From: an uncultured Verrucomicrobiae bacterium
GTDB lineage: Bacteria; Verrucomicrobiota; Verrucomicrobiia; Limisphaerales; UBA11358
Assembly (NCBI GenBank): GCA_963754775.1
Contig: CAVWHM010000023.1
Span: forward strand, 94,481 to 158,480
Length of the DNA stretch: 64,000 nt
Direction of reading: 5' to 3'
Of this stretch, positions 1 to 43,670 are shown piece by piece. The notes beneath the pieces were generated by a model, which was not told where the DNA came from, searched no databases, and saw nothing but the letters and a program-made list of their open reading frames with translations. Each line of letters starts with the position of its first letter. Position 1 is the first letter of the stretch. Position numbers and translations under genes: made by a program.

Positions 1-1
1 A

Positions 2-938: not shown

Positions 939-940
939 AA

Positions 941-1004
941 CAGGCGTCCCGCCTGTCTCCTGATTTCACAAAACCAGAAAATATGGAGACAGGCAGGATG
1001 CCTG
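941..1004. repeat. GC-rich imperfect inverted repeat between convergent deoA and pyrF (GGCGTCCCGCC palindrome family); possible bidirectional terminator
   Basis: caggcgtcccgcctgtctcc (941-960) pairs with ggagacaggcaggatgcctg (985-1004), 18/20 complementary. The core aggcgtcccgcctg recurs at 30031-30044 inside uvrC. Confidence 0.6.
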
Positions 1005-1760: not shown

Positions 1761-1804
1761 CCGCGAATTTTGACTTTGCCATGAAAATTTTCTAGCCTGC
1801 CCGC

Positions 1805-4699: not shown

Positions 4700-4823
4700 A
4701 CCGCAGCCAATGGAAATTTCCGGCTCCAAAGCCCGTTCCCGGCGCGACGCCGAAAACGACAGACGGGACGCCCGCGCCACCCTTTTTGTTTCCCGCCGGT
4801 GCAATTTCTGCTAAGAAGCCGGC

Positions 4824-6152: not shown

Positions 6153-6173
6153 AAATCCGCGTCATCATTTCGC

Positions 6174-6885
6174 GTGCGCTTCCTGAAGAAATTTCTTTCC
6201 ACGTCGCCAGCCACCGCCCGGGTCGCGCCGTTTGTGGTTTTTCTCGCGCTGACGTTTTGCCAGGGGCAATTCGGCGCGGCGTCGGCTTATTGGTTTTACT
6301 TCGCCAAAACGCTGGTTGGCGTGTGGCTGATATGGGAAATGCGCCCGTTCGTGGCGGAAATGCGCTGGGCCTTCAGTTGGGAAGCGGTCGTCGTCGGCAT
6401 GGGCATGTTTGCGATTTGGGTTGGCATTAGACCGCGAATGGACGACGCAAACCTCGCTATTGATGCAAAATCGGCGTTGCGCAAATTTGCCGGCAGCCGG
6501 CCAAGTTCCATGGAACCCGAACGCACAATTTGGCGAAAACTCGGCGCTCGCTTGGCTGATGATCGTCACGCGGATTCTTGGTTCGACATATGTCGTGCCG
6601 CCGCTGGAGGAGGTTTTTTACCGCTCGTTTCTCTATCGCTATATCGCCAAACCGGATTTCCTGTCCGTGCCGCTCAATCAATTTTTGCCGCTGCCATTTT
6701 TTGCGACTGCGGCCGTTCTTCGGCTTTTCCCACAACAATGGCTGGCGGGCATTTTGTGCGGCGCGGCATATCAATGGCTGGTGTTGCGCAAAAACCGGCT
6801 GGGTGACGCGATGACGGCGCACGCCATCACGAATTTCCTGCTGGGCGTGTGGATTGTCTGGAAACACGCGTGGCAGTTTTGGTGA
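6174..6885 (+). CDS. CPBP/CAAX-family intramembrane protease-related protein (PEP-CTERM-associated type); about 3 apparent frameshifts
   Basis: Contains PPLEEVFYRSFLYRYI (EExxxR motif), FFGFSH (in a third frame at about 6715-6735) followed by QQWLAGILCGAAYQWL, and AHAITNFLLGVW. ORFs 6174.., 6409.. and 6578.. are fragments of one protein. Confidence 0.7.
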
Positions 6886-6964
6886 TATTCTATTAATCGT
6901 CACCGTAATCTTGATCTCCGGTATCCGGCGATTGCGATCAAGATCGGGATTCCGACTGCGAATT

Positions 6965-8643
6965 TTATTTCGCCTCGATGTTGATGTTGTTGCGTTCGAG
7001 CGTGCTGCCTTCCTGCGCGGCCAAGATTGGCGAGCGCCTCGTTGTAATTGGCCAGCGCGCGGATTTCCGCTGAGCGAGCGGAGGTGAGGGTGTTTTGATA
7101 TTGCAGCACGTAAAGGTGGTGGCTTTGCCGACGGCATAGGTTTTCTGTTCGGCGTCCAGCGCGGCCTCGGCGTAAATGCGCGCCTGTCGCGTGGCGTCCA
7201 CTTTTTGATAATTGGATCGCGCCCACCATGGCGTTGTCAATCTCCACCATCACATTTTGTTCGAACTGTTTGAGCTGCAGCAAGATTTGCTGCAGCGTCG
7301 CCTTGTCGGATTTATATTGATTGCGCGGACCGACGTTGTTGAGCGGGATCGTCATTTGCGCGCCATAACTGTAAAACGGAGCGTTGCCCTCATGGAATTG
7401 CTCGAATGTGCCGCTGAATTCCTTTGACGCGCCATTAAAACCATAGGTGCCGATCAGATCCAGTTCCGGGAAAAAGTTGATTCCGGTAAAATTTCAACTG
7501 AATGCCCTGTTGCTCCACATTCAACTGCGCCTGCAAGAGGTCCGGCCGCTCGGTCATGCCCTTCCGCCAACTGTCCTGCAAATTAAAGGTTTGCACGGGC
7601 GCGGTGAGTGCCGCCTTCGGCTGGATGTCCATATCGTGCCATTGGTAATAGTTCGTATCCGCGAGCAGGCTATTTAAAGCGTTCTGATCGCTGACCAGCG
7701 TAAATTGCGCGGCAATCAGATTGGCCCGGCTCTGTGCCACCTGCGATTCATCCTGCTGGACGCTCAAGATGGCAAGCGTGCCGATTTGCACGCGCTGGTT
7801 GTCCTGATCAAGTTGCGTCTGGGCGAGCTCCAGCGCCTCCTGCTGCACCTTCACGTTTTCCAGCGCGTAAATGAGTTCGTAGTAGGCATTCTCAACGGCG
7901 GTAACGGAGGTGATGATTTGCTGCCGCAGGCCTTGTTCGGAGTATTTCAAGCGGTTCTTGGCGACACGAATGGTCAGCCGCGTGTTATCGATCCAGAAAT
8001 TTTTCAACAGCGGCTGTGTCAGAGTGACTCCGATAGTGCCAGCCGGTGCTGTCAGAGTGAACCGTGCCGGATGAGATATCGCTCCGCAATGTTGCCGCTA
8101 AAATCGTATTGCAATCCCCACGGCAGTGAACCGCCGATGCCCGAGTTAAAACCGTTTGCCTCGGTCATCCTGGCCGGGATCGGTTGGTCGAATACTGATT
8201 GAAGGTGCCGCCGGCTGACATGTCGTAACTGTGCTTGCCGGAAATGTTGAATGCCGGATCGTAACCGCTGTAGGCCGCGCGAAGTTGTAAAGTGAAATTT
8301 GCGGATTGTAGCGTTGAATTTGCACGTCGAGATTGTGCTGCAACGCCTCCTGAATGCAGTCCTGCAATGACATCGCGCGGCCATTGGCGTTGATCGTGCC
8401 GGCGGTCGGCATTGGTCCCGGGGACGGGGCTGGTGCGCTGGTCTCGGCCGGCGCGGTGGCCGCATTCGTGTCCGTTTGCGTGGCAACCGGGTTTGAATTT
8501 GTTTGGACGGCGACCGTATTGGCCTCCGGTTGGAGTGCCGGCGCGTTGGTCTCGGCTGGCACGGTGGCCGCATTCGTGTCCGTCTGCGCCCGCGCGGCCA
8601 GGGCCAGGGAAAAAACAAGCAAAAAAACACTGAAACGTTTCAT
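6965..8643 (-). pseudogene. TolC-family outer-membrane efflux protein; signal peptide present; at least 6 frame breaks
   Basis: MKRFSVFLLVFSLALAARAQ, then a Thr/Ala/Pro repeat, then AMSLQDCIQEALQHNLDVQIQRYNPQI. ORF 7435..8007 (RLKYSEQGLRQQIITSVTAVENAYYELIYALENVKVQQEALELAQTQL...) and ORFs 6900/6965.. are TolC-like coiled/beta repeats scattered over all three frames. Confidence 0.7.
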
Positions 8644-8719
8644 GGTGCTGTGCATGCTGTGCATGTTGCGGCTTCCGCCGCGATTCGTCAAACCTAAGAC
8701 GCGCCGGCGCGCCCGGAGG

Positions 8720-10081
8720 TAACCATATGGTTAATTCCGGGTCAGCTGGATTCCCGCCCGGAGCCGGCGACGTGGATGGCGGAACATCCTCGATGACCGC
8801 GTTCTTCTCCAGCAGATCAAGCGCCTTTTCGTGCAGGATTTGCTCGTAAAGTTCGGGCACGCCGTCGCGTTTCTGCAGATCCTTTAGGAATTTTTCGAGC
8901 GGAATCTGATACAACGCCGCCAGCGACTGCGCGCGTTTCAAAATTTCCTCCTGCGACACCTTGATTTCTTCCTTCTCCGCAATGCGCTGGATCAAAAACG
9001 ACAGCTTCACGCGCTCCTTCGCATTGTAGGTGGCCGCTGAATAGATTTGCTCCTTTTGCTGCTCAATCATCTCGCGGGTGATGCCGCGCTTGGTGTTTTG
9101 ACGCACGATGTCATAGACCGCGTTGCGCGTCTCCTGCGCGACCGCCGATTCGGGCAGATCAAAATTCACGCGGTCGAGCAGCCCGCGGATGACCTGCGTG
9201 CGGATGGCTTTGGCCTGCGAATAATTCAATTCGTTCTCCAGGTCCCGCCGCACGCCGTCGCGGAGTTTCTCCAGGTTTTCCGCGCCGTAAAGCCTGGCGA
9301 ACGCGTCGTCCACCGGCGGCAGGATTTTTTCCTTTATCTCAACGACTTCAATCTCAAAAACGCCCTTTTTGCCCGGCGAGTTCCTTCGTCACGAAATCGG
9401 CTGGGAAATCCACGCTGACCGCGCGCCGGTCGCCCGCCCTGGCGCCGGTCAGTTGCTCGGCAAAACCGGGCAGGAACGCCTCCGGCCCGATGTCCACCCA
9501 GAAATTTTTCTGCTCCGTCAGCCCCTTCGCCGTCGGCGCGGTGTCGGTGATGGGCTTGCCGTCGCACGTGCCGGTGTAATTCACCACCGCGATGTCGCCC
9601 GGGCTGCGCCTCGCGCGCGACCGTCTCGAACTTCGTGTGCTGCCGCCGGAGCAGTTCCACCGCGCGCTCCACGTCGGCCGTCCGTGACGGACTTGGCCTC
9701 GCGTTTGACCCGCAGCCCTTTGTAATCGGGCATTTGAAATTCCGGCGCGGTCTCGATGGTGGCGGCGAATTGCAGCGCCTGACCGCGGCCAAACTGGATT
9801 TCCTCGATATCCGGGTAGCCAACCACGGCGATTTTCTTTTCGTCCACCGCCTTGCGATACGCATCGCTGATGAGTTTGCGCTTGGCCTCGGCCTTGATGT
9901 CGGCCTCGTATTTTTTGGCGACCAACTCGCGCGGCGCCTTGCCTGGGCGGAACCCGGGCAGCGAGGCCTGTTTCTGGAAATCCTTCGTGACGGCGGCGAA
10001 GGCCTCGTCCACGGCCTTGGCGTCCACTTCCACCCGCAGCAATTTTTTGCACGGGGCCAGATTTTCAACGGTGACGTTCAC
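8720..10081 (-). CDS. tig: trigger factor; at least 3 apparent frameshifts; authentic stop not identifiable (3' limit approximate)
   Basis: N-domain: MNVTVENLAPCKKLLRVEVD...LPGFRPGKAPRELV. PPIase part: GDIAVVNYTGTCDGKPI...FLPGFAEQLTGARAGD. C-domain: VFEIEVVEIKEKILPPVDDAFARLYGAENLEKLRDGVRRDLE... These sit in three frames. The last frame runs without a stop into the TolC-like gene (ORF 8165..9313). Confidence 0.8.
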
Positions 10082-10859: not shown

Positions 10860-12932
10860 TTAATTTTTCGCCGGCGCGTTGGTGAACAGGAACGATTCCC
10901 GCCACGGCTGGTGGTTTTTGTAGAGTTGCAGCCGTTGTTGGATGCCTTCGAGGTTTTTCATTTTAGCGGCGATGGCGAGATCAAGGGCATTTTGCGTGGC
11001 GTCCAGCGCGTTGGTGAAATCGCCGGTTTCCGCGCAGGCCATGCCCAGCGCGTCGAGCACGAACGGTTGCGCGCCGCCGGTCAGCGCGTTGGCCTTGGCC
11101 GCAAGCACGAGCGCGGTTTTCCCGTCGCGAATTTCAGGATTTTCGGCGGCGGCCAGCACATGGGCGGTGTAGGCGAGGATTTGAAAATTGTCCGGGTCAA
11201 TCCGCAGCGCCGCGTGGAACTGATCCATCGCTTCGGCATCGCGGCCTTGTTTCAGCAGCGTTTTGCCCATTTCAAAATGCGGCCAGGGATAGGTCGGGTC
11301 GAGCCGCGCCGCGTTGGCGAATTCATTCATGGCTTCGCTGAACCGGCCGAGTTCGGCGAGCACACTGCCGAGGCCGTCATGCAAAGACGGAAGTTCCGGA
11401 TTCAGCCGGACGGCTTCGTGATATTCGGCCAGCGCCTGTTCCGGTTTGCCCATTTTATCCAGCAGGTTGCCGAGGTTATTGTGGGTTTGGTAACGCTCCG
11501 GCGCGAGCTTCGCGGCAGTGCGGTATTCGGCCAGCGCTTCATCCAATTTCCCTTGCTGTTCCAGTGCCACGCCGAGATTGGCATGCGCGATGTCGTTGTC
11601 CCGGGTCACGGCGAGCGCATGGCGAAAGAGCGTTTCGCTATCACACCAGAAACGCAATTGATGCTCCATGGCCAAAAGGCAGCCGCCCAAAATTAAAACC
11701 GCAACAGCGGCCACGGCAATGGGAGGAAATTGAAAGCGCGCCGCCAATTCGCGGAAGCCGAACGTGACAGCGAGGAACAGGCCGATGGAAGGAATGTAAG
11801 CGTAGCGGTCGGCCAGCGCCGCGCCGCCAACCTGCACCAGCCCGATGACCGGCACGAGTGTGCCCAAAAACCACAGCCAGCCGACGAGCAAATACGGCCA
11901 GCGCCGCCGGGCCAGCCAGACAGCGAGGGAAAGGAAAATCAAAACCGCGACCGCGGCTGCGATGGCAAACACGGGAATCTTGTCTGGCATCGGATAAATG
12001 ACGGCGAGATCGGCCGGCCAGATCATTTTCAGCAGGTAGCGCACAGCGGCGACCGGCGCGTTTTCCAAGCGATAGCGCAACGAAACTTTTGCCAGCGAGA
12101 CCACGGCTTCTCCATGTCGCTGCGCGAGAAAAGTGACAATGCAGGAAATGAGGGTGAGCAGAAAGAACGGCCACTTCTCCAACGCCAATCGCAGAACCCC
12201 TGCCACCTGCCACTTGTCCGCCGCGCTGAAGCGCTGCGAAAGCGGGTCTCCGGTCACTCGCTTGAGCGGCCAGAAGTCGAGCAGCAACATTACAAACGGC
12301 AGCGTGACGAGCATCGGTTTGGACATCAAACCGAGCGCGAAGAAAATCAGTGCCAGCCAATAGAAAGGTGACACGTGACACGTGACACGTGACAAGTCGG
12401 GCACGGGCGCGGCTTCTTTGCCAGTCACCTGCCCCCTGCTTGCCGCGCTGAAGCGGAGCGAAAGCGGGTCACTTGCCACGGATTTTGCATAGCGCACATA
12501 AGCCAGCAGGGTCAGCAGCCCGAAGAACGTGCTCAACACGTCCTTGCGTTCCGAAATCCATGCGACGGATTCAACGTGCAGCGGGTGCCAAGCGAACAGC
12601 GCGGCAACGAACGCGCCTGGCCACAACGTATTCGTCAGTCGGCGCAGCAGCGTGAAAAGCAAAACCACATTGGCCGCATGGAACAGGACGTTGACCAGAT
12701 GCTGCGCGCCGGGGTTCAACCCGAACAGTTCGCAATCCAGCATGTGCGAAAGCCAGGTGAGCGGATGCCAGTTGCCCGCATGTGCGGTCGTGAAGGCCCA
12801 TTCGACGCCGGCCCAGGTCAGGCCGTTTTGGACAACCTGATTCCCGGTGACGTAATCGTCGTCGTCATAGACCAGGAAGTTGTGGCGGCATACCGGCAGA
12901 TAAACCAGCAGTGTGACCAGCGCGAGCAACAA
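10860..12932 (-). CDS. TMTC-like protein: N-terminal PMT_2/GT-C-type polytopic membrane domain plus C-terminal TPR repeats
   Basis: 690-aa intact ORF. It has the acidic first-loop motif NFLVYDDDDYVTGN, typical of PMT/TMTC-type mannosyltransferases, followed by many TM segments. The C-terminal half is TPR repeats (AIAHANLGVALEQQGKLDEALAEYRTA... and so on). It contains three in-frame repeat inserts (see 12199-12476). Confidence 0.7.
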   Translation of the reverse strand: MLLALVTLLVYLPVCRHNFLVYDDDDYVTGNQVVQNGLTWAGVEWAFTTAHAGNWHPLTWLSHMLDCELFGLNPGAQHLVNVLFHAANVVLLFTLLRRLTNTLWPGAFVAALFAWHPLHVESVAWISERKDVLSTFFGLLTLLAYVRYAKSVASDPLSLRFSAASRGQVTGKEAAPVPDLSRVTCHVSPFYWLALIFFALGLMSKPMLVTLPFVMLLLDFWPLKRVTGDPLSQRFSAADKWQVAGVLRLALEKWPFFLLTLISCIVTFLAQRHGEAVVSLAKVSLRYRLENAPVAAVRYLLKMIWPADLAVIYPMPDKIPVFAIAAAVAVLIFLSLAVWLARRRWPYLLVGWLWFLGTLVPVIGLVQVGGAALADRYAYIPSIGLFLAVTFGFRELAARFQFPPIAVAAVAVLILGGCLLAMEHQLRFWCDSETLFRHALAVTRDNDIAHANLGVALEQQGKLDEALAEYRTAAKLAPERYQTHNNLGNLLDKMGKPEQALAEYHEAVRLNPELPSLHDGLGSVLAELGRFSEAMNEFANAARLDPTYPWPHFEMGKTLLKQGRDAEAMDQFHAALRIDPDNFQILAYTAHVLAAAENPEIRDGKTALVLAAKANALTGGAQPFVLDALGMACAETGDFTNALDATQNALDLAIAAKMKNLEGIQQRLQLYKNHQPWRESFLFTNAPAKN
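12199..12476. repeat. cluster of intragenic repeats inside the TMTC-like gene: two copies of a roughly 57-bp element plus a (GTGACAC)n heptamer run
   Basis: Copy A is 12199-12257 and copy B is 12421-12476. They share the core gccgcgctgaagcgSWgcgaaagcgggtc (27/29) and encode DPLSQRFSAADKWQVAG and DPLSLRFSAASRGQVTG. The run gtgacacgtgacacgtgacacgtgacaag at 12367-12398 encodes SRVTCHVS. The ORF stays open. Confidence 0.7.
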
Positions 12933-13255
12933 ACCGATGAGGCGTGGACGGGCCTTCGCCGCGCCGACTGTCCGCCATAGCCTTGGCGACGGCGGAAGGG
13001 ATTGTGTTGGAAAGCCGCCCCGGCGCCTGCCGGGCAGGTTTCCTGGCTTTCGCGGTTCTGGCTTCGGCCACGCAGGCGGGACATCGGCTTTCTTTTAAGC
13101 CATTTTGCCCGCCCGGCAAGCGTAGAGAATTTTTTCCCGCAAAAAGGCTTGGCATTCCTCCGCGCGGCGATTAATAATTTGTCCGGCAGGTAGAGGCTCG
13201 ACCGCCTGCCGCTTGGCCGCTACATCGGTTCCTCACGACCAAGTTACCAGTCGTT

Positions 13256-31768: not shown

Positions 31769-32422
31769 TTACACCTTCTTTCGCAAATGCCGGTGGACGA
31801 AGAAATAATAAAGTCCGCCGAGCACGAGCGCCGCGCCGCCGACCCAAAATACGACGCGGTGCATTTCACCTTTGGTGATGTCGGCGCCGATGTTGATGCC
31901 GAGCCAGCACAACACCGAACACCAGATCGTTGCGCCGAGCACCGTGAACAGGGAAAATAACCTGTAATCCATCCGCGCGATGCCGGTGGGGATGCCGACG
32001 AGTTGCCGCGCCCCCGGCAGCAGCCGCGCGACGAACACGCCCATCGAACCGTAGTGCGACATCCAGCGTTCGGCTTTTTCCAGTTTCTCTGGCGGAAACA
32101 AAACGAGCCGGCCATAACGCAAAGTGAGGGGCCGGCCGGCGTACCGCGCCAGCCAATACATGATCGTCGCGCCCAGCCACGAGCCGAACGCGCCGGTAAC
32201 GACGATGCCGATTTGCGCCGGCCAGCCGGACAAATGGAACTGGAAAAGATTCAAGCCGTCTCCCGACCACGCCAGATGCGCTGCGGGTGGAATGATGACC
32301 TCGCTCGGCAGCGGCAGAAAGGAGCTTTCCATCGTCATCAACAACACGATGAGCGGATAACCGCCGGTTTTGAGCGCGCCGAGGTACCACGTGATAATGG
32401 GTTTGAAAAAGGAATTGAGCAT
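31769..32422 (-). CDS. DedA/SNARE-associated family membrane protein
   Basis: ESSFLPLPSEVIIPPAA...GSWLGATIMYWLARYAGRP...ARLLPGARQLVGIPTGIARM. Confidence 0.8.
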   Translation of the reverse strand: MLNSFFKPIITWYLGALKTGGYPLIVLLMTMESSFLPLPSEVIIPPAAHLAWSGDGLNLFQFHLSGWPAQIGIVVTGAFGSWLGATIMYWLARYAGRPLTLRYGRLVLFPPEKLEKAERWMSHYGSMGVFVARLLPGARQLVGIPTGIARMDYRLFSLFTVLGATIWCSVLCWLGINIGADITKGEMHRVVFWVGGAALVLGGLYYFFVHRHLRKKV

Positions 32423-33599: not shown

Positions 33600-35690
33600 A
33601 TGAACTTGCGCAACAGCAAAGACTGGATGGCGCACTTTAAATTCAGTTCCCTCCGGACAAGGCTTCTGAATTGCCGCCGTGCGATGGGCAATGCCTTTGG
33701 CGCTTCCGCGGGCGGGACAAAACGGCGGCTTTTGTTTTTTGAGCTGTTCGTGGCGCTTTCACTGGGCGTGACCTACTACTTCCTCGTTGAAAATTTTGCC
33801 ATTGGCAGCCCGAACAACTATACCAACGGCTGGGTATTCACGTCGTGTTCGTTTCCGGGTTTTCATCTGGACAAACTCGGCGATGTCTGGAAAGGGCGGT
33901 TGTCGGGTCTGTTGTTGTCTGGCTGGCTGTTTGATTCCCTGGTTAAAGACAACAAGTTCGGCATTGAACAGTACGAAAGCCTTTTCGGGTTATATCAAAG
34001 TTTGTGGCTGTTTCTGTTGTTCCTGGCCGTCATTTTTGCCTTGCGCCATTCGCTGTTCATCAACCTTGGCATCTTCGCGGGGTTGATGTATGGTTTTACG
34101 CCCGCCTCCGGTCTGTATTTTTATCCGTGGGACCTGCCCGCCACGTTGTTCTTTACACTGGCCGTCCTGTTTTTCGAGCGCCGGCAAATGTGGCTGATGG
34201 CCGCGGCGATTTGCGCCGGGTGTTTCTTCAAGGAAACCGTCCTGGTCTGCGCCTTGCTGGTGCTGTTTGCCAGTCCCTGGAAATGGGGGAAGCGGGTGCT
34301 GGCCTTTGCCGGCATCGTCGCGGTGTATCTGCTGGGAAAGAAATTCCTATTGAGCCAGTTGCACTTCCACGTGGCCGCCTTTTCCATGAACAATGCGACG
34401 AGTCTGACCGGGTTGTTCCGGCCTGCGCTGCTGATTGACAATTTCAAAGCTCTCTTGTCGCCGACTCTCAACCACGCCATTTTTGTCAACGCGGGTACCC
34501 TGGTGGCGGTCCTGGCGCTGGGTTGGCGCAGACGGTTTCTGCCGTACATGGCGGTGATTGTCGTTTATCTGGGAGGACAATTTATGTATGGGGGGCTCAA
34601 TGAATTTAGAATTTTCATGCAGATCCTGCCCTTGAGCCTGATTATGTTGAGTGAGCGGTGGCAGGAATATGCGGGGTCAGGTGCGGCGGAGGCGTTGCCT
34701 GCGGGTTCTGCCCCGGCCTGGGCGTTGCGCGAAACGTTTCCGGTTCTTATGCCGCTGACGATTGTGTTGATCGGCCTGTCCACCGGCATCGCCGCCTGGC
34801 GCTATTATGACATCTGTGAAAACCTCCGGCTCGACGGCCGGGAGCCGTCTGAACTGGGCCGGCGCACTGTTGAACCGGAGGGGCACGTCAGTAATCTCAA
34901 TGTCGAGTATCAAGAATTACGCAGCGAGTATGTCAAAGATGAATTGGAACTGGCCAGGGTTTCTATTGATAACCAGCACCCTTCAGACGCAATAAATCAC
35001 TACGAACGGGTTCTCGAACAGGATACAAATTCAGTGGCCGCGATGAGCGGACTCGCCTGGTTGCGCGCCACAGCTTCCGACCTGCGCCTGCGCAACAACG
35101 GCGAGGCGCTGCGGCTGGCTGAACGGGCCTGTCAACTGACTCAAAACAAGGAAGCCTCTCTGGTCGGAATCCTGGCCGTCGCCTACGCTGAAGCCGGACG
35201 CCTCAGCAATGCAGTTGTCACCGCCCCAAAAGCCCACGCGCTGGCCCTGGCACAGGGGCAAAAAGATGTGTACGTCGAGGCCGAATTGGACCTGGCCAAG
35301 GGCTCCATTGATAACCAGCAGCCTTCAGATGCCATCAATCACTACCAACGGGTTCTCGCGGTGGATGCAGATTCAGTCGCCGCGATGAGCAGTCTCGCCT
35401 GGTTGCGAGCCACAGCTTCCGACCCGCGCCTGCGCAACGGCGACGAGGCGGTGCGGCTGGCTGAGCGGGCTTGTCAACTGACTCAAAGCAAGGAGGCCTC
35501 ACAGGTCGGAATCGCGGCTGCCGCCTACGCTGAAGCCGGACGCCTCAACGATGCTGTTGCCACCGCCCAAAAGGCCTATGCGCTGGCCCTGGCCCAGGGC
35601 CAAAAAGATGTTGCCACAAGAACTGAACAGTTGCTGAAATTGTATAAATCCGGGCAGCCTTACCACCAGGAAGCCAGGCCGGCCCCTTGA
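33600..35690 (+). CDS. paralog P1: uncharacterised polytopic membrane domain (about 400 aa) plus C-terminal TPR region (with internal 114-aa duplication)
   Basis: 696-aa intact ORF with conserved blocks LFLLFLAVIFALRHSLFINLGIFAGL, YFYPWDLPATLFFTLAVLFFERRQMWLMAAAICAGCFFKETVL and GGLNEFRIFMQILPLSLIMLSERW. The TPR tail ends in LLKLYKSGQPYHQEARPAP. Confidence 0.7.
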   Translation: MNLRNSKDWMAHFKFSSLRTRLLNCRRAMGNAFGASAGGTKRRLLFFELFVALSLGVTYYFLVENFAIGSPNNYTNGWVFTSCSFPGFHLDKLGDVWKGRLSGLLLSGWLFDSLVKDNKFGIEQYESLFGLYQSLWLFLLFLAVIFALRHSLFINLGIFAGLMYGFTPASGLYFYPWDLPATLFFTLAVLFFERRQMWLMAAAICAGCFFKETVLVCALLVLFASPWKWGKRVLAFAGIVAVYLLGKKFLLSQLHFHVAAFSMNNATSLTGLFRPALLIDNFKALLSPTLNHAIFVNAGTLVAVLALGWRRRFLPYMAVIVVYLGGQFMYGGLNEFRIFMQILPLSLIMLSERWQEYAGSGAAEALPAGSAPAWALRETFPVLMPLTIVLIGLSTGIAAWRYYDICENLRLDGREPSELGRRTVEPEGHVSNLNVEYQELRSEYVKDELELARVSIDNQHPSDAINHYERVLEQDTNSVAAMSGLAWLRATASDLRLRNNGEALRLAERACQLTQNKEASLVGILAVAYAEAGRLSNAVVTAPKAHALALAQGQKDVYVEAELDLAKGSIDNQQPSDAINHYQRVLAVDADSVAAMSSLAWLRATASDPRLRNGDEAVRLAERACQLTQSKEASQVGIAAAAYAEAGRLNDAVATAQKAYALALAQGQKDVATRTEQLLKLYKSGQPYHQEARPAP

Positions 35691-35718
35691 AACGCAAGCC
35701 AAGCAACCAGGAACTCTT

Positions 35719-36480
35719 ATGAATGAACCCGCGCGCAAAAATGATTTGAAGCTCTTATCCGTCGTCATGCCGGCGCGGGACGAGGAGGGTTGCATCGCCT
35801 CAACGGTTGAGCATCTGCATTTGGAGTTAAGCCTGCAAAAGGTTCCACACGAAATCGTGGTCGTGGACGATGGCAGCACGGATTCGACCTGGAAGATTTT
35901 GTGCGATTTGACCCGGAAAATTCCCGAGCTTGCGCCCATGCAAAATACCGGCTTGCACGGTTTTGGGCGCGCCATCATTGAGGGATTGAACCAGATGAAG
36001 GGCGACGCCGTCGTCATTATGATGGCCGACGAATCGGATGATTGCCGCGACGTGGTGCGTTACTGGAAATTGCTGAACGACGGCTGGGATTGTGTGTTCG
36101 GCAGCCGGTTCATCAAGGGCGGCGGAACGATTGATTATCCGCCGGTAAAACACGTCGTGAACCGGCTGGCAAATTTTTTCATCAAGGTGCTGTTCCACAT
36201 CCCGTTCAATGACACGACCAACGCGTTCAAGGCTTACCGGCGCGAAGTCATTGATGGCTGCCGTCCGCTGATCGCCCCGCACTTCAACCTCACCGTCGAA
36301 CTGCCGCTCAAGGCCATCGTGCGCGGCTTCACCTGGACGACGATGCCCGTCACCTGGAAAAACCGGCGCGCGGGCATGGCCAAATTGAAGATCAAGGAGA
36401 TGGGCAGCCGCTATTTCTTCATCTGTTGCTACGTCTGGCTGGAAAAGTATTTCAGCCGCGGTGATTACCGGAAAAAGTAG
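35719..36480 (+). CDS. family-2 glycosyltransferase (polyprenol-phosphate sugar transferase-like, DPM1/GtrB type)
   Basis: LSVVMPARDEEGCI, VVVDDGSTDST, MADESDD (DxD-like) and NAFKAYRREV. At 253 aa it is a soluble-size GT-A. Confidence 0.75.
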   Translation: MNEPARKNDLKLLSVVMPARDEEGCIASTVEHLHLELSLQKVPHEIVVVDDGSTDSTWKILCDLTRKIPELAPMQNTGLHGFGRAIIEGLNQMKGDAVVIMMADESDDCRDVVRYWKLLNDGWDCVFGSRFIKGGGTIDYPPVKHVVNRLANFFIKVLFHIPFNDTTNAFKAYRREVIDGCRPLIAPHFNLTVELPLKAIVRGFTWTTMPVTWKNRRAGMAKLKIKEMGSRYFFICCYVWLEKYFSRGDYRKK

Positions 36481-36605
36481 CCGGCGTTTCCCGCGAAAGA
36501 GCGGAAGTTTGAGAAGGTGATTCGGGCGGCGCGTGAGCACGTCCCGCCTTATTCGAAAAGTGGGCATTTCGATAATGCCGTCGCCAGCACCTCAAAAGCC
36601 GCTTA

Positions 36606-36716
36606 AAAATCCGACGCGTCCGGCGGAAACCAAACCTGCCGCCTCCCGATGTGGAGCAATCGAAGGCTTTTTCTTGTCGTCACTGTGCGCAGTGCTAAAG
36701 TTCATCCCCAACGACC
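36606..36716. repeat. leader of paralog P2 (decayed tRNA-Arg 3'-half-like repeat plus conserved 5' region)
   Basis: atccgacgcgtccggcggaaaccaaacctgccgcctcccgatgtggagcaatcgaaggctttttcttgtcgtcactgtg...ttcatccccaacgaccATG. It is nearly identical to 38485-38593. Confidence 0.65.
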
Positions 36717-38462
36717 ATGAATTTGCGCAACGGCGCAAGCTGGCTGGCGAACTTGAAACTCAATTCCCTCAAGACAAGGCTTCTGAGTGGCTGGGGCGCA
36801 CTAGGCGGCGTCTTTGGCCGCCGGAATGGCGGTTCATCATCGCTGCTGCTGTTTTTTGAGTTGTTCATGGTGCTTTCACTGAGCGTGTCCTACTTCTTCT
36901 TGGTCAGGACCTACATCACCCGTGGCGATCCTATGAACCGCTACGTGTTCACCGCAGGTTCGGAAAAGTTTTACTCACTGGACCTACCAACAATAAATGA
37001 CGCCTGGAAGGGTCGCCTGTCGGGCTTGTTGTTTTCCGGCGCGATGATTGATTTTGCAGTCAGGGAACACACCGTTACCAAAGAACAAATAGAGCGAGGC
37101 AATAATGTTTTTGGATTGTACCATGCTTTCTGGCTGCTGCTGTTGTTCCTTGCCGTCATTTTCGCCCTGCGCCATTCGCTGTTCATCAACCTCGGCATCT
37201 TCGCCGGACTGGTGTATAATTTTTCGCCCGCCGCCGGTCCGTATTTTTATCCGTGGGACCTCCCAGCCACGTTGTTTTTCACGCTGGCCGTCCTTTTTTT
37301 CGAGCGCCGGCAAATGTTCCTGATGGCGGCGGCGATTTGCGTCGGGTGTTTTTTCAAGGAAACGGTTCTGGCCTGTGCGGTGCTGGCGTTGTTCGCCAGT
37401 CATTGGAAGTGGTGGAAACGGGTTCTACTGTTTGCCGTTCTCGTCGCGGCGTATGTGGCGGGGAAAAATTTTCTGTTGAGCCAGTTGTCCCTCAACGTGT
37501 TTAGCTTTTCAATGGGGTATGCGTCGAATTTTGTTGAGTTGTTTCGGCATACGTTTCTCATTTACAACCTGAAGGTGCTGTTCTCGGCGACCATCAATCA
37601 TGTCATTTTTGCCAACGCTGGAACTTTGGTAGTGGTTCTTGTACTGGGCTGGCGCATGCGTTTTCTCCCCTACATGACGCTGATCTTCGTGTTCCTTGGT
37701 GGACAGCTCATCTACGGCGGGTTCAATGAATTTCGCATTTTCATGGACATCCTGCCCTTGAGCCTGATCCTGTTGAGCGAGCGGTGGCTGGAACATAGCG
37801 GGTCAGTTCCGGTCGGCGATGGATCTGCCGGATTTGCCCCGGCCTGGGCGGTGCGCAAAACTTTTCCAGTTCTGTTCCCGATGACCATCGTGTTGATTGT
37901 GCTCTCCATTGGAGTTGTGGCCCGGCAGTATTATATCATCTTCGAAGACCTCCAGCCTGCTCACCAAGCGCGGTCTGAACTCGGCAAATACAACATCGAA
38001 CTCCAACCAGGCGTCACTGATCCGGAATTGTTGCGAAAGGGGTATGCCGATGCCGAATTGGAACTGGCGAGTATTTCTGTGAGCAACCAGCAGCTTTCAG
38101 ACGCCATCAACCACTACCGCCGGGTGCTTGAATTGGACACGAATTCGGTCCCTGCCTTGAATAATCTTGCCTGGCTGCTGGCCACGGCTTCCGACCCTCA
38201 GTTGCGCAATGGCAAAGAGGCGGTACGCTTAGCCGAACGGGCTTGTCAATCAACTCAATATAAGCAGGCTTTTCTCATCAGAACCCTGGCCGCCGCTTAT
38301 GCCGAAGCCGGACGATTCGACGATGCCGTCGCCACTGCCCAAAAAGCCCGCACGCTGGCGCTGGCACAGGGACAGAAGGAGATTGCGGCACAAAACGAAC
38401 AGTTGCTGGAACTGTATAAATCCGGCCGGGCTTATCATCATGAGGCCAAGCTTGCCCCGTAA
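36717..38462 (+). CDS. paralog P2 of the membrane + TPR protein
   Basis: 581-aa intact ORF, collinear with P1 (same conserved blocks). Its tail is LLELYKSGRAYHHEAKLAP. Confidence 0.7.
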   Translation: MNLRNGASWLANLKLNSLKTRLLSGWGALGGVFGRRNGGSSSLLLFFELFMVLSLSVSYFFLVRTYITRGDPMNRYVFTAGSEKFYSLDLPTINDAWKGRLSGLLFSGAMIDFAVREHTVTKEQIERGNNVFGLYHAFWLLLLFLAVIFALRHSLFINLGIFAGLVYNFSPAAGPYFYPWDLPATLFFTLAVLFFERRQMFLMAAAICVGCFFKETVLACAVLALFASHWKWWKRVLLFAVLVAAYVAGKNFLLSQLSLNVFSFSMGYASNFVELFRHTFLIYNLKVLFSATINHVIFANAGTLVVVLVLGWRMRFLPYMTLIFVFLGGQLIYGGFNEFRIFMDILPLSLILLSERWLEHSGSVPVGDGSAGFAPAWAVRKTFPVLFPMTIVLIVLSIGVVARQYYIIFEDLQPAHQARSELGKYNIELQPGVTDPELLRKGYADAELELASISVSNQQLSDAINHYRRVLELDTNSVPALNNLAWLLATASDPQLRNGKEAVRLAERACQSTQYKQAFLIRTLAAAYAEAGRFDDAVATAQKARTLALAQGQKEIAAQNEQLLELYKSGRAYHHEAKLAP

Positions 38463-38484
38463 ACCGTCCCAATTGCCACGAGAA

Positions 38485-38593
38485 AATCCGACGCGTCCGG
38501 CGGAAACCAAACCCGCCACCTCCCGATGTGGAGCAATCGAAGGCTTTTTCTTGTCGTCACTGTGTGTGGTGCTAATGTTCATCCCCGACAACC
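38485..38593. repeat. leader of paralog P3 (decayed tRNA-Arg 3'-half-like repeat plus conserved 5' region)
   Basis: cgcgtccggc is identical to the tRNA 3' end. Over the next 33 nt I count 19 ungapped matches to the tRNA half. The following aatcgaaggctttttcttgtcgtc also parallels the sequence right of the 40394 repeat (aatcgagggtttgtttctccgcgt). Confidence 0.6.
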
Positions 38594-40368
38594 ATGAATT
38601 TGCGCATCGGCGCAAGCTGGCTGCCGAACTTGAAACTGAATTCCCTCAAGACAAGGCTTCTGAATTGCGGGGGCGCGCTGGGCCGCATTTTTAGCCGTCG
38701 GAATGGTGGCCCCTCATCCTGCTGCTGTTTTTTGAATTGTTCATGGTGCTTTCATCTGAGCGTGTCCTACTTCTTTCTGGTCAGAAACTACATCACCCGT
38801 GGCGATACCATGAACCGCTATGTGTTCAATGCCGGTTCGGAAAAGTTCTACCAACTGGACCAACCCATCATGGGTGCGCACTGGGACAGCCGCCTGTCGG
38901 GCTTGCTGTTTTCCGGCGCGATGATTGATTTTGCAGTCAGGGAACACACCCTTACCGGGGAACAAATACTGGAGCGATTCAACAATGTTTTCGGATTGTA
39001 CCATGCTTTCTGGCTGCTGCTGTTGTTCCTGGCCGTCACTTTCGCCTTGCGCCATTCGCTGTTCATCAACCTCGGCATCTTCGCGGGATTGATGTATAAT
39101 TTTTCGCCCATCTCCGGGCCGTATTTTTATCCATGGGACATGCCGGCGATGTTGTTTTTTACACTGGCCGTTCTGTTTTTTGAGCGCCGGCAAATGTGGC
39201 TGATGGCGGTCGTGACTTGCGCCGGGTGTTTTTTCAAGGAAACCGTTTTGGTCTGCGCCCTGCTGGTGCTGTTCGCCGGTCACTGGAAGTGGGGAAAGCG
39301 GATTCTAACCTTTGCCGGCATCGTCACCGTGTACGTGCTGGGGAAAAAACTTCTGCTGAGCCAGTTACACCTCCAGGCGGCGGCGCTCTCACTGGGAGAT
39401 GCGACGAATTTGCGGGGGTGGCTCGCCCCCGCGCTCCCCATGGAAAACCTCGTTGAAAATCTCAAGGTGCTTTTTTCACCGACGCTCAACAGCGTCATTT
39501 TCGCCAACGCGGGAACCCTGGCGGCGGTGCTGGTGCTGGGCTGGCGCAGGCGTTTCCTGCCTTACATGACGGTAATCCTGGCGTTCATCGCCGGGTTGGT
39601 TCTGCTTCCTCTGAAGCCTGCCCGGCATTACTGAAGTTCGCGTTTTCATGCAAATCCTGCCATTGAGCCTCATCCTCTTGAGTGAGCGCTGGCTGGAACA
39701 GGCCGGGTCAGTTCCTGCCGGCGAGGGATCTGCTGGATTTACCCCGGCCTGGGCGGTGCGCAAGACCTTTCCGGTTCTGCTCCCAATGACTATCCTGCTG
39801 ATTGCGCTCTCCACCGGAGTTGCCGCCTGGCAGTATCATATCATCTTTGAAGACCTCCAGCCCGGCCACCGGGCGCGGTCTGAACTTGGCAAATACAACA
39901 TCGGGCCCCAAGGACCTTATCAGCAACCAGGAATTCTTACGTTCGGAGAATTCCTTTGCTGAATTAAAACTGGGCATGATTTCCATGGAAAACGGGCAGG
40001 ATTCCGCCGCCATCAATCATTACCAACGGGTGCTTGAGTCGGACACAAATTCAGTCATCGCCCTGAACAATCTTGCCTGGTTGCTGGCCACGGCTTCCGA
40101 CTCCGGCTTGCGCAACGGCCAGGAGGCAGTGCGTCTGGCCGAACAGGCCTGTCAATTAACTCATTACCAGGATGCCGCTTTGATCGAAACCCTGGCCGCC
40201 GCTTACGCCGAAGCCGGTCGCTTCAACGATGCGGTCGCCACCGCCCAAAAGGTCCGCACCGTGGCGCTGGCGCACGGACAGAAAGAGATTGCGGCAAGAA
40301 ATGAACAGTCCCTGGAACTGTATAAATCCGGTCGGGCTTACCACCAGGAAGCCAGGCCTGCCCCGTAA
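38594..40368 (+). CDS. paralog P3 of the membrane + TPR protein; 2 apparent frameshifts (about 39620 and 39930)
   Basis: ORFs 38594..39634, 39648..39962 and 39802..40368 are collinear with P2. The tail is LELYKSGRAYHQEARPAP. Confidence 0.6.
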
Positions 40369-40710: not shown

Positions 40711-41847
40711 TCAGAGCGAATCGGCGAACTTCTGCATCGCCTCCTCCTGTTTCTCGATGCTTTCCACCAGGCGGAACTGCGTGCGGCAGCGGTCGAGGTT
40801 GTGCCGCGGCCGGTGCACGCGGAAGTAAGTGTCGCCGCTGAGGAAATCCGTCAGGAACCGGATGCCGATGGTGAAGGTGATGAGTTTGCCGGAAAAGGCG
40901 ATGAGCGCGCGCTCCGCCTTGGTCAGAAACGGCCCGGTCCCTTCGAGATAACCCCGGGCCAGCGCCTTGAACATCGGCATGCCCATCTGGACCTTCGACA
41001 GGTCGAGCTCGTCCTCCAGCGTTGGGCTGGTCGTGGTGCGAATCATGTCGCCGAAATCATAGAGCACGCAGCCCGGCATGACCGTGTCGAGGTCCACCAC
41101 GCACATGGCTTTGCCGGTCTCGATGTCGAGCATCACGTTGTTGAACTTGGTGTCATTGTGTGTGATGCGCTCCGGGATTTTGCCCTTGGCCAGGCCGTGA
41201 AGGATCACATCCACGATTTTCTCCTGTTTACAGGCAAACTGGATTTCGGCTTTGGCCTCGACCGCGCGGTTGAACTTGTCCTCCGCGACGGCCTTTTGCA
41301 GCGCCGCAAAGCGCCGGCGCGTGTCGTGAAAATGAGGAATCGTCTCCGCCAGGCGCTTGCCGGCCAGGTCCACCAGCAGGCTTTGGAACCGCCCGAAGGC
41401 CTTGCCCGCTTCATAGGCCTGGATCGGCGATTCCACCGTCTCGTAGGTGCGCGCGCGCTCGACAAACGCGAACGTGCGCCAGCATTCGCCGGCGGGCGAC
41501 GTGAAATACGTCCGGCCCTCGCGCGTCGGGATGACCGTGAGCGTGCGGCGCGACACGTCCCTCACACCATGCTCCGCCAGCTTGCGGCGCTGGTGGGAGG
41601 TAACGCGCTCGATGTTGTCCATCACCGCGTCCGGATGCTTGAACACCTTCGTGTTGAGCTTCTGGTGCACATAGCGCACGTGTACGCCGCCCTGGTTGTA
41701 GGCGGCGATGTAGGTTTCGTTGATGTGCCCAATCTTGCACGGCTCGGCGTGGAGCAGGTCGCCGTAGATCTGAAACTGCCGCGAGACTTCGAGAATTTGC
41801 GCTTCCTGGTAGTCGTCCATAAGGTCGGGGTCATTAAACACCAGCAC
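40711..41847 (-). CDS. APH-fold phosphotransferase, N-acetylhexosamine-1-kinase-like
   Basis: 378-aa intact ORF with KIGHINETY, ITHNDTKFNNVMLD (catalytic loop) and VVDLDTVMPG. The resemblance to NahK/LnpB-type kinases is from memory. Confidence 0.6.
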   Translation of the reverse strand: MLVFNDPDLMDDYQEAQILEVSRQFQIYGDLLHAEPCKIGHINETYIAAYNQGGVHVRYVHQKLNTKVFKHPDAVMDNIERVTSHQRRKLAEHGVRDVSRRTLTVIPTREGRTYFTSPAGECWRTFAFVERARTYETVESPIQAYEAGKAFGRFQSLLVDLAGKRLAETIPHFHDTRRRFAALQKAVAEDKFNRAVEAKAEIQFACKQEKIVDVILHGLAKGKIPERITHNDTKFNNVMLDIETGKAMCVVDLDTVMPGCVLYDFGDMIRTTTSPTLEDELDLSKVQMGMPMFKALARGYLEGTGPFLTKAERALIAFSGKLITFTIGIRFLTDFLSGDTYFRVHRPRHNLDRCRTQFRLVESIEKQEEAMQKFADSL

Positions 41848-42167: not shown

Positions 42168-43670
42168 ATGCAGCGAGAAAAGCAAGCAAATATGCCTATG
42201 AAATCAATATCTTTGAGCAATCCGGCAAAACCCGCCGCAACCCCGGTTGCAACGGGTCGCAACCTGAAAAGTGGCAGCAAAGTGGCAGCATTTTCCGACG
42301 AGCACGAACCCGCAAAATGGGCGGGCCGTTGGTCGAATCTGGCCGCCGACCACGTGAAGCGATGGGAAAAGCGTCTCTACGTCCCGAAATCCGGCCACGA
42401 GGGGGATGTTGTTGAAGCCCGCCGACTCGCCGTGCGGATTCAACACCTGGGCAGGCGCGAAGAATTTCGGTTCGAGACTACGAACCGCCAGGCTGCCGCC
42501 ATTCAAGCACTGGAAGTGTTCCGTTTCCTCAAATCGAATGGCTGGCCGGCCACGCTCGCCAAATACAAGCCCGAAGTCGAAAAGGTGAAACTCAACACCA
42601 CGATTGGCGATTACCTCGTCGCCGTCCATGATACGAACCGCCTGCGCTCCCGCACTTTTTTGAACTATCAAAACGCGCTGCGAACCGTCGCCGCCGAAAT
42701 CTTCGCCGTGAAGCTGGACAAAGGCGCGTCGAAATTCGATTACCGGAGCGGCAACCGCGAGCAAAGCGGGCGCGCCACATGGATTGGGAAGATTGACGCG
42801 CACCGGCTGGGCGAACTCACGCTGGAAAAGGTCACGGATTGGAAGCGCAAACGCGTCGTCCGCGCCGGAAACTCGCCCGCTGCCATCGCCTCCGCCAAGC
42901 GCACGGTCAACTCTTACATACGCTGTGCCCGCTCACTGTTCGCCCCCGGCATCGTCCGCGAAGTGAAGGGGCTGACGCTGCCCGACACGCTGCCCTTTGT
43001 CGGCGTTGAACTCGAAGAAACCGGCTCGATGAAATACGTCAGCAAGATCAACGCGCAAACCCTCATCGCCGCCGCAAAGCGCGACCTCAAAACCAAAGAC
43101 CCGGAAGCCTACAAAGCTTTTCTGCTTGGTCTGTTCGCTGGCCTGCGAAAAGCCGAAATTGATTCGTTGGAATGGGGGATGATTGATTTTTCGGACAACA
43201 TCATCCGGCTGGAACAAACCGAATGGCTGCACCTGAAAACTGACGATTCCGCCGCCGAAATCACCGTTGACCCCGAAGTGCTGGTCGAACTTCGCGCCAT
43301 GATACCGGAGCCAACAGACAAGCCGGCACAATGGAAGCAATTTGTTCTCGTCGGCACTCGTCCGCCGCGTCCCGAATCACCCCGGCCCTATTACCGCTGC
43401 GAAGAAACGTTTGAGCGGTTGAACGCATGGCTGCGGAGCAAGGGCATCACCGCCAACAAACCGCTGCACGAACTGCGGAAGGAACTCGGCGCCCTGATTG
43501 CGACTGAGCAGGGCATATACGCCGCGAGCCGTTTTTTGCGGCATTCCGACATATCCACCACCGCGCGCCACTACGCCGACCACAAGGCACGCATCAGCGT
43601 CGGTTTAGGCAAATACCTCGACACGTCCATCGGTGTTCCCTCGCAGCGAGCCAAAGCCGCCGTCGCATGA
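42168..43670 (+). CDS. tyrosine recombinase / phage-type integrase
   Basis: 500-aa intact ORF with C-terminal catalytic signature GLRKAEI (R), HELRKELG (HxxR), FLRHSDISTT (H) and ARHYAD (Y). The true start is uncertain, because the arm-type repeat lies at codons 34-41. Confidence 0.85.
   Translation: MQREKQANMPMKSISLSNPAKPAATPVATGRNLKSGSKVAAFSDEHEPAKWAGRWSNLAADHVKRWEKRLYVPKSGHEGDVVEARRLAVRIQHLGRREEFRFETTNRQAAAIQALEVFRFLKSNGWPATLAKYKPEVEKVKLNTTIGDYLVAVHDTNRLRSRTFLNYQNALRTVAAEIFAVKLDKGASKFDYRSGNREQSGRATWIGKIDAHRLGELTLEKVTDWKRKRVVRAGNSPAAIASAKRTVNSYIRCARSLFAPGIVREVKGLTLPDTLPFVGVELEETGSMKYVSKINAQTLIAAAKRDLKTKDPEAYKAFLLGLFAGLRKAEIDSLEWGMIDFSDNIIRLEQTEWLHLKTDDSAAEITVDPEVLVELRAMIPEPTDKPAQWKQFVLVGTRPPRPESPRPYYRCEETFERLNAWLRSKGITANKPLHELRKELGALIATEQGIYAASRFLRHSDISTTARHYADHKARISVGLGKYLDTSIGVPSQRAKAAVA
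42267..42291 (+). promoter_or_regulatory. 25-bp repeat aaaaGTGGCAGCAaaGTGGCAGCAt (candidate arm-type integrase binding site), left copy
   Basis: Perfectly identical to 61465-61489 in the same orientation. Internally it holds two GTGGCAGCA direct repeats. Confidence 0.5.

Follow-up and report, generated by a model that had tools for sequence, protein, structure and literature searches.

Organization of the P-GT2 locus

The window analyzed here is the whole 64,000-nucleotide (nt) stretch of contig CAVWHM010000023.1 (positions 94,481 to 158,480) from an uncultured Verrucomicrobiae bacterium; its GC content is 57%, and its closest database relatives are metagenome-assembled genomes (MAGs) of soil and peat Verrucomicrobiota. 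Within it lies a tandem array of three paralogous genes, P1, P2 and P3, whose products join a polytopic membrane domain to C-terminal TPR repeats, together with a gene for a family GT2 glycosyltransferase located between P1 and P2. A first-pass annotation of this DNA had proposed that these genes form a lipid-linked-sugar glycosylation module, an interpretation that is partly supported by our analysis. In the reading that we favor, the P proteins may be periplasm-facing glycosyltransferases that resemble the GT-C class.

P1 (696 aa; 33600-35690, + strand) is an open reading frame (ORF) that matches our hidden Markov model of the P core at E 3e-123 and has Pfam TPR matches. It consists of a membrane core, which carries YPWD at aa 175, FKET at aa 210 and EFRIF at aa 335, an extra transmembrane (TM) helix, and a TPR domain whose predicted location is the periplasm. 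The GT2 ORF (253 aa; 35719-36480, +; Pfam PF00535, E 2.8e-19) is followed by P2 (581 aa; 36717-38462, +), which is built from the same three parts, with a TPR domain again predicted to be periplasmic, and is identical in sequence to database protein P0001; we used P2 as the reference copy. The third paralog, P3 (38594-40368, +), contains two frameshifts and is read in three pieces (38594-39634, 39648-39962 and 39802-40368). Intergenic gaps measure 28 nt (P1-GT2), 236 nt (GT2-P2) and 131 nt (P2-P3), and P1 and P2 are 62% identical across the membrane domain and 63% identical across the whole alignment. The annotated set of one GT2 and three P paralogs is therefore intact for P1, GT2 and P2, but P3 is split over three frames. 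Similarly, the sequence blocks described as strictly conserved are exact in P1 and P2, but P3 reads YFYPWDMPAMLFF and its NEFRIF block coincides with a frameshift.

The frame of P3 changes near 39615, beside a short ccc run, and near 39915, at a cccc run. Because the counterpart of P3 is a single intact ORF in a related locus with 95% nt identity to the window (L005), either P3 is a pseudogene or its frameshifts are sequencing errors of the long-read indel type. The same locus holds four P copies (5537-9157) at the site where the window holds three, showing that copy number varies, and we conclude that the tandem array is a recent paralog expansion. Expansion is also seen within a gene: the terminal TPR module (~113-135 aa) is doubled in P1 (aa 448-560 and 562-696; 34941-35687, +), and this duplication is the reason that P1 is 115 aa longer than P2.

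The P core defines a family absent from Pfam

The core common to the P proteins comprises ~320 aa (P2 residues 40-360) and 10 TM helices. Pfam returned no match for the membrane domain of P1, P2 or P3 even at E <= 10, and it did match the TPR repeats, which agrees with the annotated combination of an unrecognized membrane domain and a C-terminal TPR domain. The ~400 aa originally assigned to the membrane domain, however, include helix 383-412, a separate TM helix outside the core.

A search of representative sequences recovered 290 P clusters at 50% identity (E <= 1e-3) out of 1.84 billion, and an indexed search recovered 195 clusters at 90% identity that were unnamed or labeled 'hypothetical protein' or 'TPR repeat protein'. 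The named P members were all from Verrucomicrobiota, and a further homolog search with the core profile gained no named or more distant P members. Many of the relatives stand alone as repeat-free proteins of 310-360 aa, and others carry TPR or Sel1 repeats. The scan of species-representative genomes used alignment A2, as A3 and A4 were too diverse, so its reach was limited to the Verrucomicrobial P subfamily; it identified 38 P loci, all in Verrucomicrobiota MAGs except for one contig binned as Pseudomonadales, with 3 to at least 7 P copies per MAG.

The sole recurrent library match of the P core was to the NCBIfam model NF046093 ('AZOBR_p60025 family cell surface glycopolymer formation protein'). 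Each of the three P copies in the window matched it (E 4e-5 to 4e-4), as did 14 members from a diverse set of 32; scores were ~20 bits, where the model cutoff is 150, and only half of the model was covered. Model positions 117-229 aligned to P2 residues 135-245, a segment that spans YPWD and FKET. For AZOBR_p60025, a tblastn search of plasmids with the P core gave no match and a literature search found no paper. We conclude that the P core is a family absent from Pfam and from the literature that we searched.

Two other origins were considered. Relatedness of the P core to cation-efflux proteins (FieF) was rejected, as it rested on phmmer matches to PDB sequences at E 0.018-0.07, confined to one helix pair. 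For a phage-borne system in the style of serotype conversion, two scans of viral contigs found no relatives of the P-like genes or of the P::GT2 fusion described below.

Conserved residues and predicted topology of P

We read residue conservation, in P2 numbering, from alignments A3 and A5 across members down to ~22% identity. Invariant or nearly invariant positions in the family are W97, R100, P179, W180, D181, P183, K214, E215, T216, N284, G302, E338, R340 and P347. An AlphaFold2 model of P2 (pLDDT 83, pTM 0.86) contains 10+1 TM helices in the order TM1 (40-63), a structured loop of ~68 residues, nine helices extending to residue 360, a disordered linker and the helix at 383-412. The loop after TM1 (aa 64-131) is modeled at pLDDT 85-98 with short helices at 66-69, 72-79, 95-98 and 101-114.

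When placed on this model, the conserved positions fall into four motifs. The W97-K-G-R100 segment (37005-37016, +), with R100 invariant and W97 nearly so, lies in the first periplasmic loop, after TM1. The YFYPWDLP segment (aa 176-183; 37242-37265, +) belongs to the periplasmic loop that connects TM3 to TM4. In it, P179, W180 and P183 are nearly invariant and D181 fully so; D181 is the candidate catalytic or metal-binding acidic residue. Two short helices (200-213 and 215-226) form a hairpin between two Arg/Lys-rich cytoplasmic loops; its tip is the FFKET segment (aa 212-216; 37350-37364, +), where K214, E215 and T216 vary little or not at all. The last periplasmic loop of the core carries E338-F-R340...L346-P347 (37728-37757, +), with E338, R340 and P347 invariant or nearly so. 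Another acidic residue of loop 1, D112, is invariant in A2, is conserved in at least 90% of sequences in A4 and falls below 90% in A3 and A5; the loop-1 DD motif is not present in P. Following the core, the additional TM helix of P2 (aa 383-412; 37863-37952, +; helical in the AlphaFold2 model) would lead the chain back to the periplasm before the TPR domain (38034-38459, +; Pfam TPR matches), which ends in a module common to a TMTC-like protein encoded elsewhere in the window.

Three independent observations bear on the orientation of P. In a natural fusion protein (P0237), a GT2 domain directly follows TM10 with no TM segment between them; because this domain depends on a nucleotide sugar, and hence is cytoplasmic, the C-terminus of the P core is predicted to be cytoplasmic. 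An extra hydrophobic helix precedes the C-terminal extension (>=120 aa, TPR or Sel1) in 159 of 162 members and is lacking in 87 of 89 short members. Finally, the short loops L2, L4, L6 and L8 are Lys/Arg-rich and L3, L5, L7 and L9 are not, as described by the positive-inside rule. As these observations agree, we infer that the N-terminus and the core C-terminus are cytoplasmic and that the TPR/Sel1 repeats and all family-wide conserved polar residues, the charged ones included, are periplasmic, in line with the periplasmic transferases of the first-pass annotation. By definition, GT-C enzymes have a polytopic membrane domain of 7-13 TM helices (PMC11127046); the number of TM helices in the P model, with which hydrophobicity and the Lys/Arg distribution agree, falls within this range. 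GT-C enzymes also have a small structured extracytoplasmic region behind TM1 that forms part of the active site, and P has a structured region, predicted to be periplasmic, after TM1.

Fold comparison and a TMTC-like control

We compared the P core with PDB and BFVD structures using Foldseek. Among the 50 PDB matches listed, those above a probability of 0.5 were exclusively proteins of the GT-C superfamily: PIG-U at 0.99 (E 0.026, TM-score 0.33), PglB at 0.91 and 0.75 (TM-score 0.35), and ALG9 at 0.84 and 0.66 (TM-score 0.37-0.39), with ALG12 and EmbA/B lower in the ranking. Transporters (including MFS proteins) and GPCRs reached probabilities of 0.25 or less among the matches listed. The BFVD comparison gave nothing useful, its one match being an uncharacterized archaeal-virus protein (probability 0.80).

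As a control, we used the TMTC-like protein (10860-12932, - strand), which is encoded outside the P cluster and combines a GT-C/PMT_2-like membrane domain with TPR repeats. Its first loop carries VYDDDDY at residues 21-27, and its last 135 residues are 30% identical to the end of P2 (BLASTP E 1e-15), with LYK ending in both; this terminal TPR module is common to the TMTC-like protein and P1-P3. Both the DDDD loop motif and the common end module had been annotated correctly. The membrane domain of the TMTC-like protein itself has no Pfam match, a few of its close homologs carry PF13231 or the label 'protein O-mannosyl-transferase', and the membrane-domain family is very large in Verrucomicrobia (at least 8000 candidates). 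The ORF remains open upstream of the TTG at 12932 (12933-13094, -), a region that encodes the ARPRLIGL segment conserved in homologs, so translation probably begins at a non-ATG codon farther upstream. In Foldseek, the model of this membrane domain (pLDDT 69) matched PglB at 0.96 (E 0.07, TM-score 0.36) and PIG-U at 0.44. Because the TMTC-like control scored no better than P, we conclude that Foldseek is insensitive for this fold class, and that the P result equals that of a presumed GT-C family and is not proof of a GT-C fold.

The first-pass annotation had likened P to TMTC-type GT-C transferases. The layout of the protein matches this description and the high-probability fold matches are all GT-C, but we found no sequence homology: hhalign alignment of the P core with the TMTC-like profile gave a probability of 7%, which is not significant. 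A GT-C fold is thus plausible but unproven. The same hhalign comparison pairs YPW..D and G..FKET of P with W..ERKD and G..SKP of the TMTC-like protein, which we note as a lead only.

The fold data also bear on a different function for P, in which it would be a Wzy-, WaaL- or SEDS-like polymerase or ligase of undecaprenyl-diphosphate glycans, its TPR domain would resemble a co-polymerase and the GT2 would decorate the same polymer. Such enzymes also typically have 10-12 TM helices and Arg and acidic residues in periplasmic loops, the TPR part of P best matches the PrsT model associated with PEP-CTERM and exopolysaccharide systems (below threshold), and NF046093 is named merely for the formation of a cell surface glycopolymer. 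However, no WaaL, RodA/FtsW or Wzy chain was among the 50 listed Foldseek matches, in which non-GT-C proteins had probabilities of 0.25 or less, and Pfam reported no Wzy_C, O-antigen ligase or FTSW_RODA_SPOVE match. Around the array there is no gene for an initiating phosphoglycosyltransferase, a Wzx flippase, a chain-length regulator or export, and the partner in the natural fusion is a monophosphate-sugar synthase. We regard a polymerase or ligase as the least probable of the alternatives weighed here. No transporter or polymerase fold emerged from our analysis, and a polyprenol-phosphate GT2 does co-occur with P, leaving in place the proposal of a GT-C-like glycosyltransferase.

The GT2 enzyme and its linkage to P genes

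The closest solved relative of the GT2 protein is the dolichyl-phosphate mannose synthase (DPMS) of P. furiosus (PDB 5mlz; E 1.1e-18, aa 13-228), followed by GtrB (sll0501) and then ArnC (E ~1e-7). The alignment with DPMS covers the regions VVVDDGS.D.TW, GSRF.KGG and RRAGMAKLK. The top NCBIfam matches are all polyprenyl-phosphate glycosyltransferases (dolichyl-P hexose transferase, AglJ, PgfS and ArnC), with equivalog scores well under cutoffs (for example, 55 bits against 375). These matches uphold the annotated DPM1/GtrB-like GT2 between P1 and P2 and, at the level of sequence, identify it as a polyprenyl-phosphate sugar synthase of the DPM1/DPMS/GtrB/ArnC type. The protein consists only of the catalytic domain and an interface region, without a TM helix or anchor. 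At the DPMS metal-binding site, the GT2 reads MADESDD (aa 102-108; 36022-36042, +): the DAD of DPMS aligns with M102-A103-D104, Met replacing the first Asp, and E105 and D108 follow. Across GT2 orthologs and in the fusion, MADES.D is unchanged, which points to an active-site arrangement particular to this subfamily.

We next compared the gene contexts of P and GT2. A P gene is directly followed by GT2 in the window, L001, L005, L014 and L047, and L013 contains a P-GT2 operon and a convergent P gene. In L025 and L037, GT2 lies 1-2.3 kb from P with SDR genes between them: L025 (8702-13143) has an operon-like P-SDR-SDR-GT2 cluster on one strand, and in L037 (7853-12814) GT2 and an SDR epimerase gene are divergent from a Sel1-bearing P. 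P therefore adjoins GT2 in at least three different arrangements, with P identities of 40-96%. GT2 is much better conserved than P, with the L037 GT2 being 76% identical to that of the window and the neighboring P 40% identical. In the natural fusion P0237, a P core at 29% identity runs directly into a GT2 domain at 41% identity (E 1e-52). On the 22-kb contig that encodes it (L004), an FkbM-type methyltransferase gene lies just upstream of the P::GT2 fusion, and positions 1-10004 contain same-strand ORFs, including one of 1280 aa and one of >600 aa, without Pfam matches. Three distant stand-alone P homologs are on short contigs with uninformative gene context.

The view from GT2 is different. 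Orthologs with 70-91% identity occur on at least 510 metagenome contigs, of which we inspected the best 80, with flanks of 6 kb or shorter. No P gene was found in the flanks of 79 of these 80 loci, the sole exception being the closest locus, L047; 29 of the 80 loci are shorter than 5 kb, so the absence of a neighbor is weaker evidence there. An SDR epimerase/dehydratase gene (~355 aa) lies immediately upstream of GT2 in 49 of the 80 loci (L047-L126). The best sub-threshold matches of the SDR protein are dTDP-glucose 4,6-dehydratase and GalE, a second SDR is present in L025 and L037, and the SDR gene found upstream of GT2 elsewhere is absent from the 64-kb window. In L089 (1485-8857), the GT2 ortholog lies between two TMTC-like genes (E 1e-139 and 1e-125), an arrangement that fits a donor synthase common to several transferase families. 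Because most GT2 orthologs lack a nearby P and follow an SDR epimerase gene, we conclude that GT2, in most cases accompanied by SDR, forms a conserved donor-synthesis unit that is shared and is not a dedicated partner of P. On the same counts, we rejected the cluster as a dedicated operon. The predicted co-occurrence of P and GT2 was thus found in several arrangements and one fusion, but most GT2 loci and ~30 P loci are unpaired. We interpret these data as support for functional coupling outside a dedicated module, with P genes having come beside GT2 repeatedly and having fused to it once.

The unpaired loci raise the question of whether the association of P with GT2 is incidental, produced by synteny within a lineage, with P acting as a transporter, a sensor or a TPR assembly factor. 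This account would also be in line with the housekeeping character of neighboring genes (UvrC, uracil-DNA glycosylase and an APH-family kinase) and with fold evidence that is statistically weak. It is less easily reconciled with adjacency in several arrangements over the range of P identities given above, with the operon-like P-SDR-SDR-GT2 cluster, with a gene fusion at 29%/41% identity, or with the low Foldseek probabilities of all listed MFS and other transporter matches. By our estimate, a gene present in about one copy in a genome of several megabases would fall within 2 kb of P by chance at well under 1% of loci. We therefore consider an incidental association improbable, though somewhat less so than polymerase or ligase activity.

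If the association is functional, P could instead be the membrane partner of the anchor-less GT2, as a docking subunit and/or a flippase or scramblase, with TMTC-like proteins being the actual transferases. Partners of this kind include DPM3 for human DPM1, the Ppm2/Lnt-like domain for mycobacterial Ppm1, and GtrA/ArnEF. The GT2 has no TM helix, the P core occupies the position of a membrane anchor in the fusion, a separate flippase gene was not found in the cluster, and TMTC-like genes flank GT2 in L089, all of which would be accommodated by this role. However, the invariant charged residues of P are in predicted periplasmic loops and not at the cytoplasmic face or in mid-membrane, and an anchor or flippase has no need for periplasmic TPR/Sel1 repeats or for a set of 3-7 divergent paralogs in each genome. 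Since P is missing near the majority of GT2 orthologs, GT2 function does not in general depend on it, and each high-probability fold match is to a GT-C enzyme or a GT-C-like subunit. A purely anchoring or flipping role is, in our judgment, unlikely, while being the strongest of the three alternatives.

Genes flanking the array

The genes flanking the array encode UvrC, a DUF4870 protein, a DedA/VTT membrane protein, a family-4 uracil-DNA glycosylase (UDG), an APH-family kinase and a tyrosine integrase, all with housekeeping or unrelated functions. The order UvrC-DedA-x-UDG-P-GT2 is repeated in L001. The DedA/VTT gene (31769-32422, -; Pfam VTT_dom) lies 1.2 kb upstream of P1, and its best NCBIfam match is the undecaprenyl-phosphate transporter UptA (NF052604, E 1.5e-26), with a score of 93.7 bits, which is under the cutoff of 250. 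From this similarity, the protein could recycle the carrier lipid, or its presence may be coincidental. Downstream of the array are the APH-family phosphotransferase gene (40711-41847, -) and the tyrosine recombinase/integrase gene (42168-43670, +). ARAGORN found no tRNA gene near the integrase junction, and a variable region may have its border at the integrase.

A proposed role for P in periplasmic glycosylation

From these observations, we propose with moderate confidence that P1, P2 and, if intact, P3 are periplasm-facing glycosyltransferases that use a polyprenyl-phosphate monosaccharide donor and are GT-C-like in function and probably in fold. Because P fails every sequence-profile test, we do not file it in any known GT-C family, and it would probably be a new family of that kind.

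In the proposed route, the anchor-less GT2 would move a sugar from a nucleotide sugar onto polyprenyl phosphate at the cytoplasmic face, possibly while docked on the cytoplasmic C-terminal end of the P core. The lipid-linked sugar would then be flipped across the membrane, either by P itself or by an unlinked protein. On the periplasmic side, the P core is predicted to bind the donor through R100, D181, K214-E215-T216, N284 and E338/R340 and to transfer the sugar. By analogy with TMTC, TMEM260 and TfpW, the TPR/Sel1 repeats, placed in the periplasm by the 11th TM helix, would select the acceptors, most likely proteins. GT2 would act as a shared synthase, probably also supplying other lipid-sugar-dependent transferases in these genomes.

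Several results weigh against assigning P this role. At the level of sequence, Pfam searches with 85 and 32 diverse P members gave nothing except one GT87 match (E 0.05), the trimmed core profile found no PDB sequence at E <= 10 (the full-length A3 profile was swamped by TPR/Sel1 matches, which led us to build the core alignment A5), and the hhalign comparison with the TMTC-like family was negative. The Foldseek matches are weak, with none at E <= 1e-3, a best E value of 0.026, TM-scores of 0.33-0.39 and rmsd values of 12-20 Å. In P, the acidic residue that GT-C enzymes canonically carry where loop 1 begins is not conserved, the invariant Asp being one periplasmic loop later. With regard to gene context, no GtrA, SMR or MATE flippase gene is present among the cluster neighbors, the fusion was seen on one metagenome contig only, and several of the adjacent P-GT2 cases are syntenic relatives and not independent events. 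Moreover, the ~30 remaining P loci have no GT2 in flanks of up to 10 kb, and P is missing beside all but one of the inspected GT2 orthologs. The annotated model of a donor synthase serving several periplasmic transferases is consequently sustained by P-GT2 adjacency and the fusion and needs revision elsewhere, as the synthase is shared, one paralog is disrupted and no GtrA-type flippase is encoded.

We also considered a more specific version of this proposal. Here, P would constitute a minimal 10-TM GT-C-like family with its own motifs (W..R, YPWD, FKET and E.R) and with GT2 docked on its cytoplasmic face or fused to it, such that synthesis, translocation and transfer are coupled without a flippase, and TPR/Sel1 paralogs target different envelope proteins in Verrucomicrobiota. 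We put this version forward tentatively and think it more doubtful than the general assignment of P as a transferase.

Relationship to known glycosylation systems

TMTC1-4 (GT105), TMEM260 (GT117) and P. aeruginosa TfpW are protein O-glycosyltransferases that combine a GT-C membrane domain with TPR repeats and use a lipid-phosphate sugar from a DPM1-type or related synthase. P resembles them in having a polytopic N-terminal domain followed by TPR repeats that are predicted to be periplasmic. In contrast to these enzymes, P has no PMT_2 or DUF1736 match, its membrane domain is not detectably homologous to that of the TMTC-like protein in the window (the hhalign result above), and it lacks the loop-1 DD/DE motif of that protein. 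The P core is also shorter than TMTC-type domains and carries its own set of motifs, and many P family members lack any repeat domain.

In the DPM1/DPM3 and mycobacterial Ppm1/Ppm2 systems, an anchor-less polyprenyl-P-mannose synthase depends on a separate membrane protein or is joined to one; M. tuberculosis Ppm1 is a fusion of the synthase with a membrane domain. The P0237 protein is similar to Ppm1, as an anchor-less GT2 is fused to the cytoplasmic end of the P core. P is, however, unrelated to DPM3 or Lnt, and its conserved charged residues and TPR domain, both predicted to be periplasmic, are not needed by those anchors.

Three-component periplasmic glycosylation systems include the GtrA/GtrB/GtrC type and a pentofuranose variant with a GT136 GT-C enzyme (Kelly et al. 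2024, PMC11127046). In these systems, a cytoplasmic synthase makes the polyprenyl-monophosphate sugar, a polytopic enzyme with an extra periplasmic substrate-binding domain acts outside the cytoplasm, and auxiliary epimerases may diversify the donor (PMC11127046). The P-GT2 locus is comparable in having a GtrB/DPM1-type GT2, a candidate transferase with a TPR domain predicted to be periplasmic and, in relatives, SDR genes beside GT2. It differs in that the cluster has no GtrA/SMR or MATE gene, the GT2 of the window has no TM anchor, unlike GtrB, and no sequence similarity is detectable between P and GtrC-type, GT136 or other GT-C enzymes. In addition, there are several tandem P paralogs in place of one transferase, and the genes are not in the context of an O-antigen locus.

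The conserved motifs of P are immediate targets for mutagenesis. How polyprenyl-phosphate sugar donors cross the membrane, and which protein is responsible, is poorly resolved in the field; if our proposal is correct, the P::GT2 fusion would provide a compact system for studying the hand-over of a polyprenyl-phosphate sugar from synthase to transferase. A role for P merely as an anchor or flippase would also be new, with a narrower scope. The diversity of the GT-C class is acknowledged to be under-sampled (PMC11127046), and P, as a transferase, would add a family without a detectable sequence link to known GT-C enzymes. It would also imply extensive glycosylation of envelope proteins or glycans in soil and peat Verrucomicrobiota, in which 3-7 or more P paralogs would operate beside a very large TMTC-like family.

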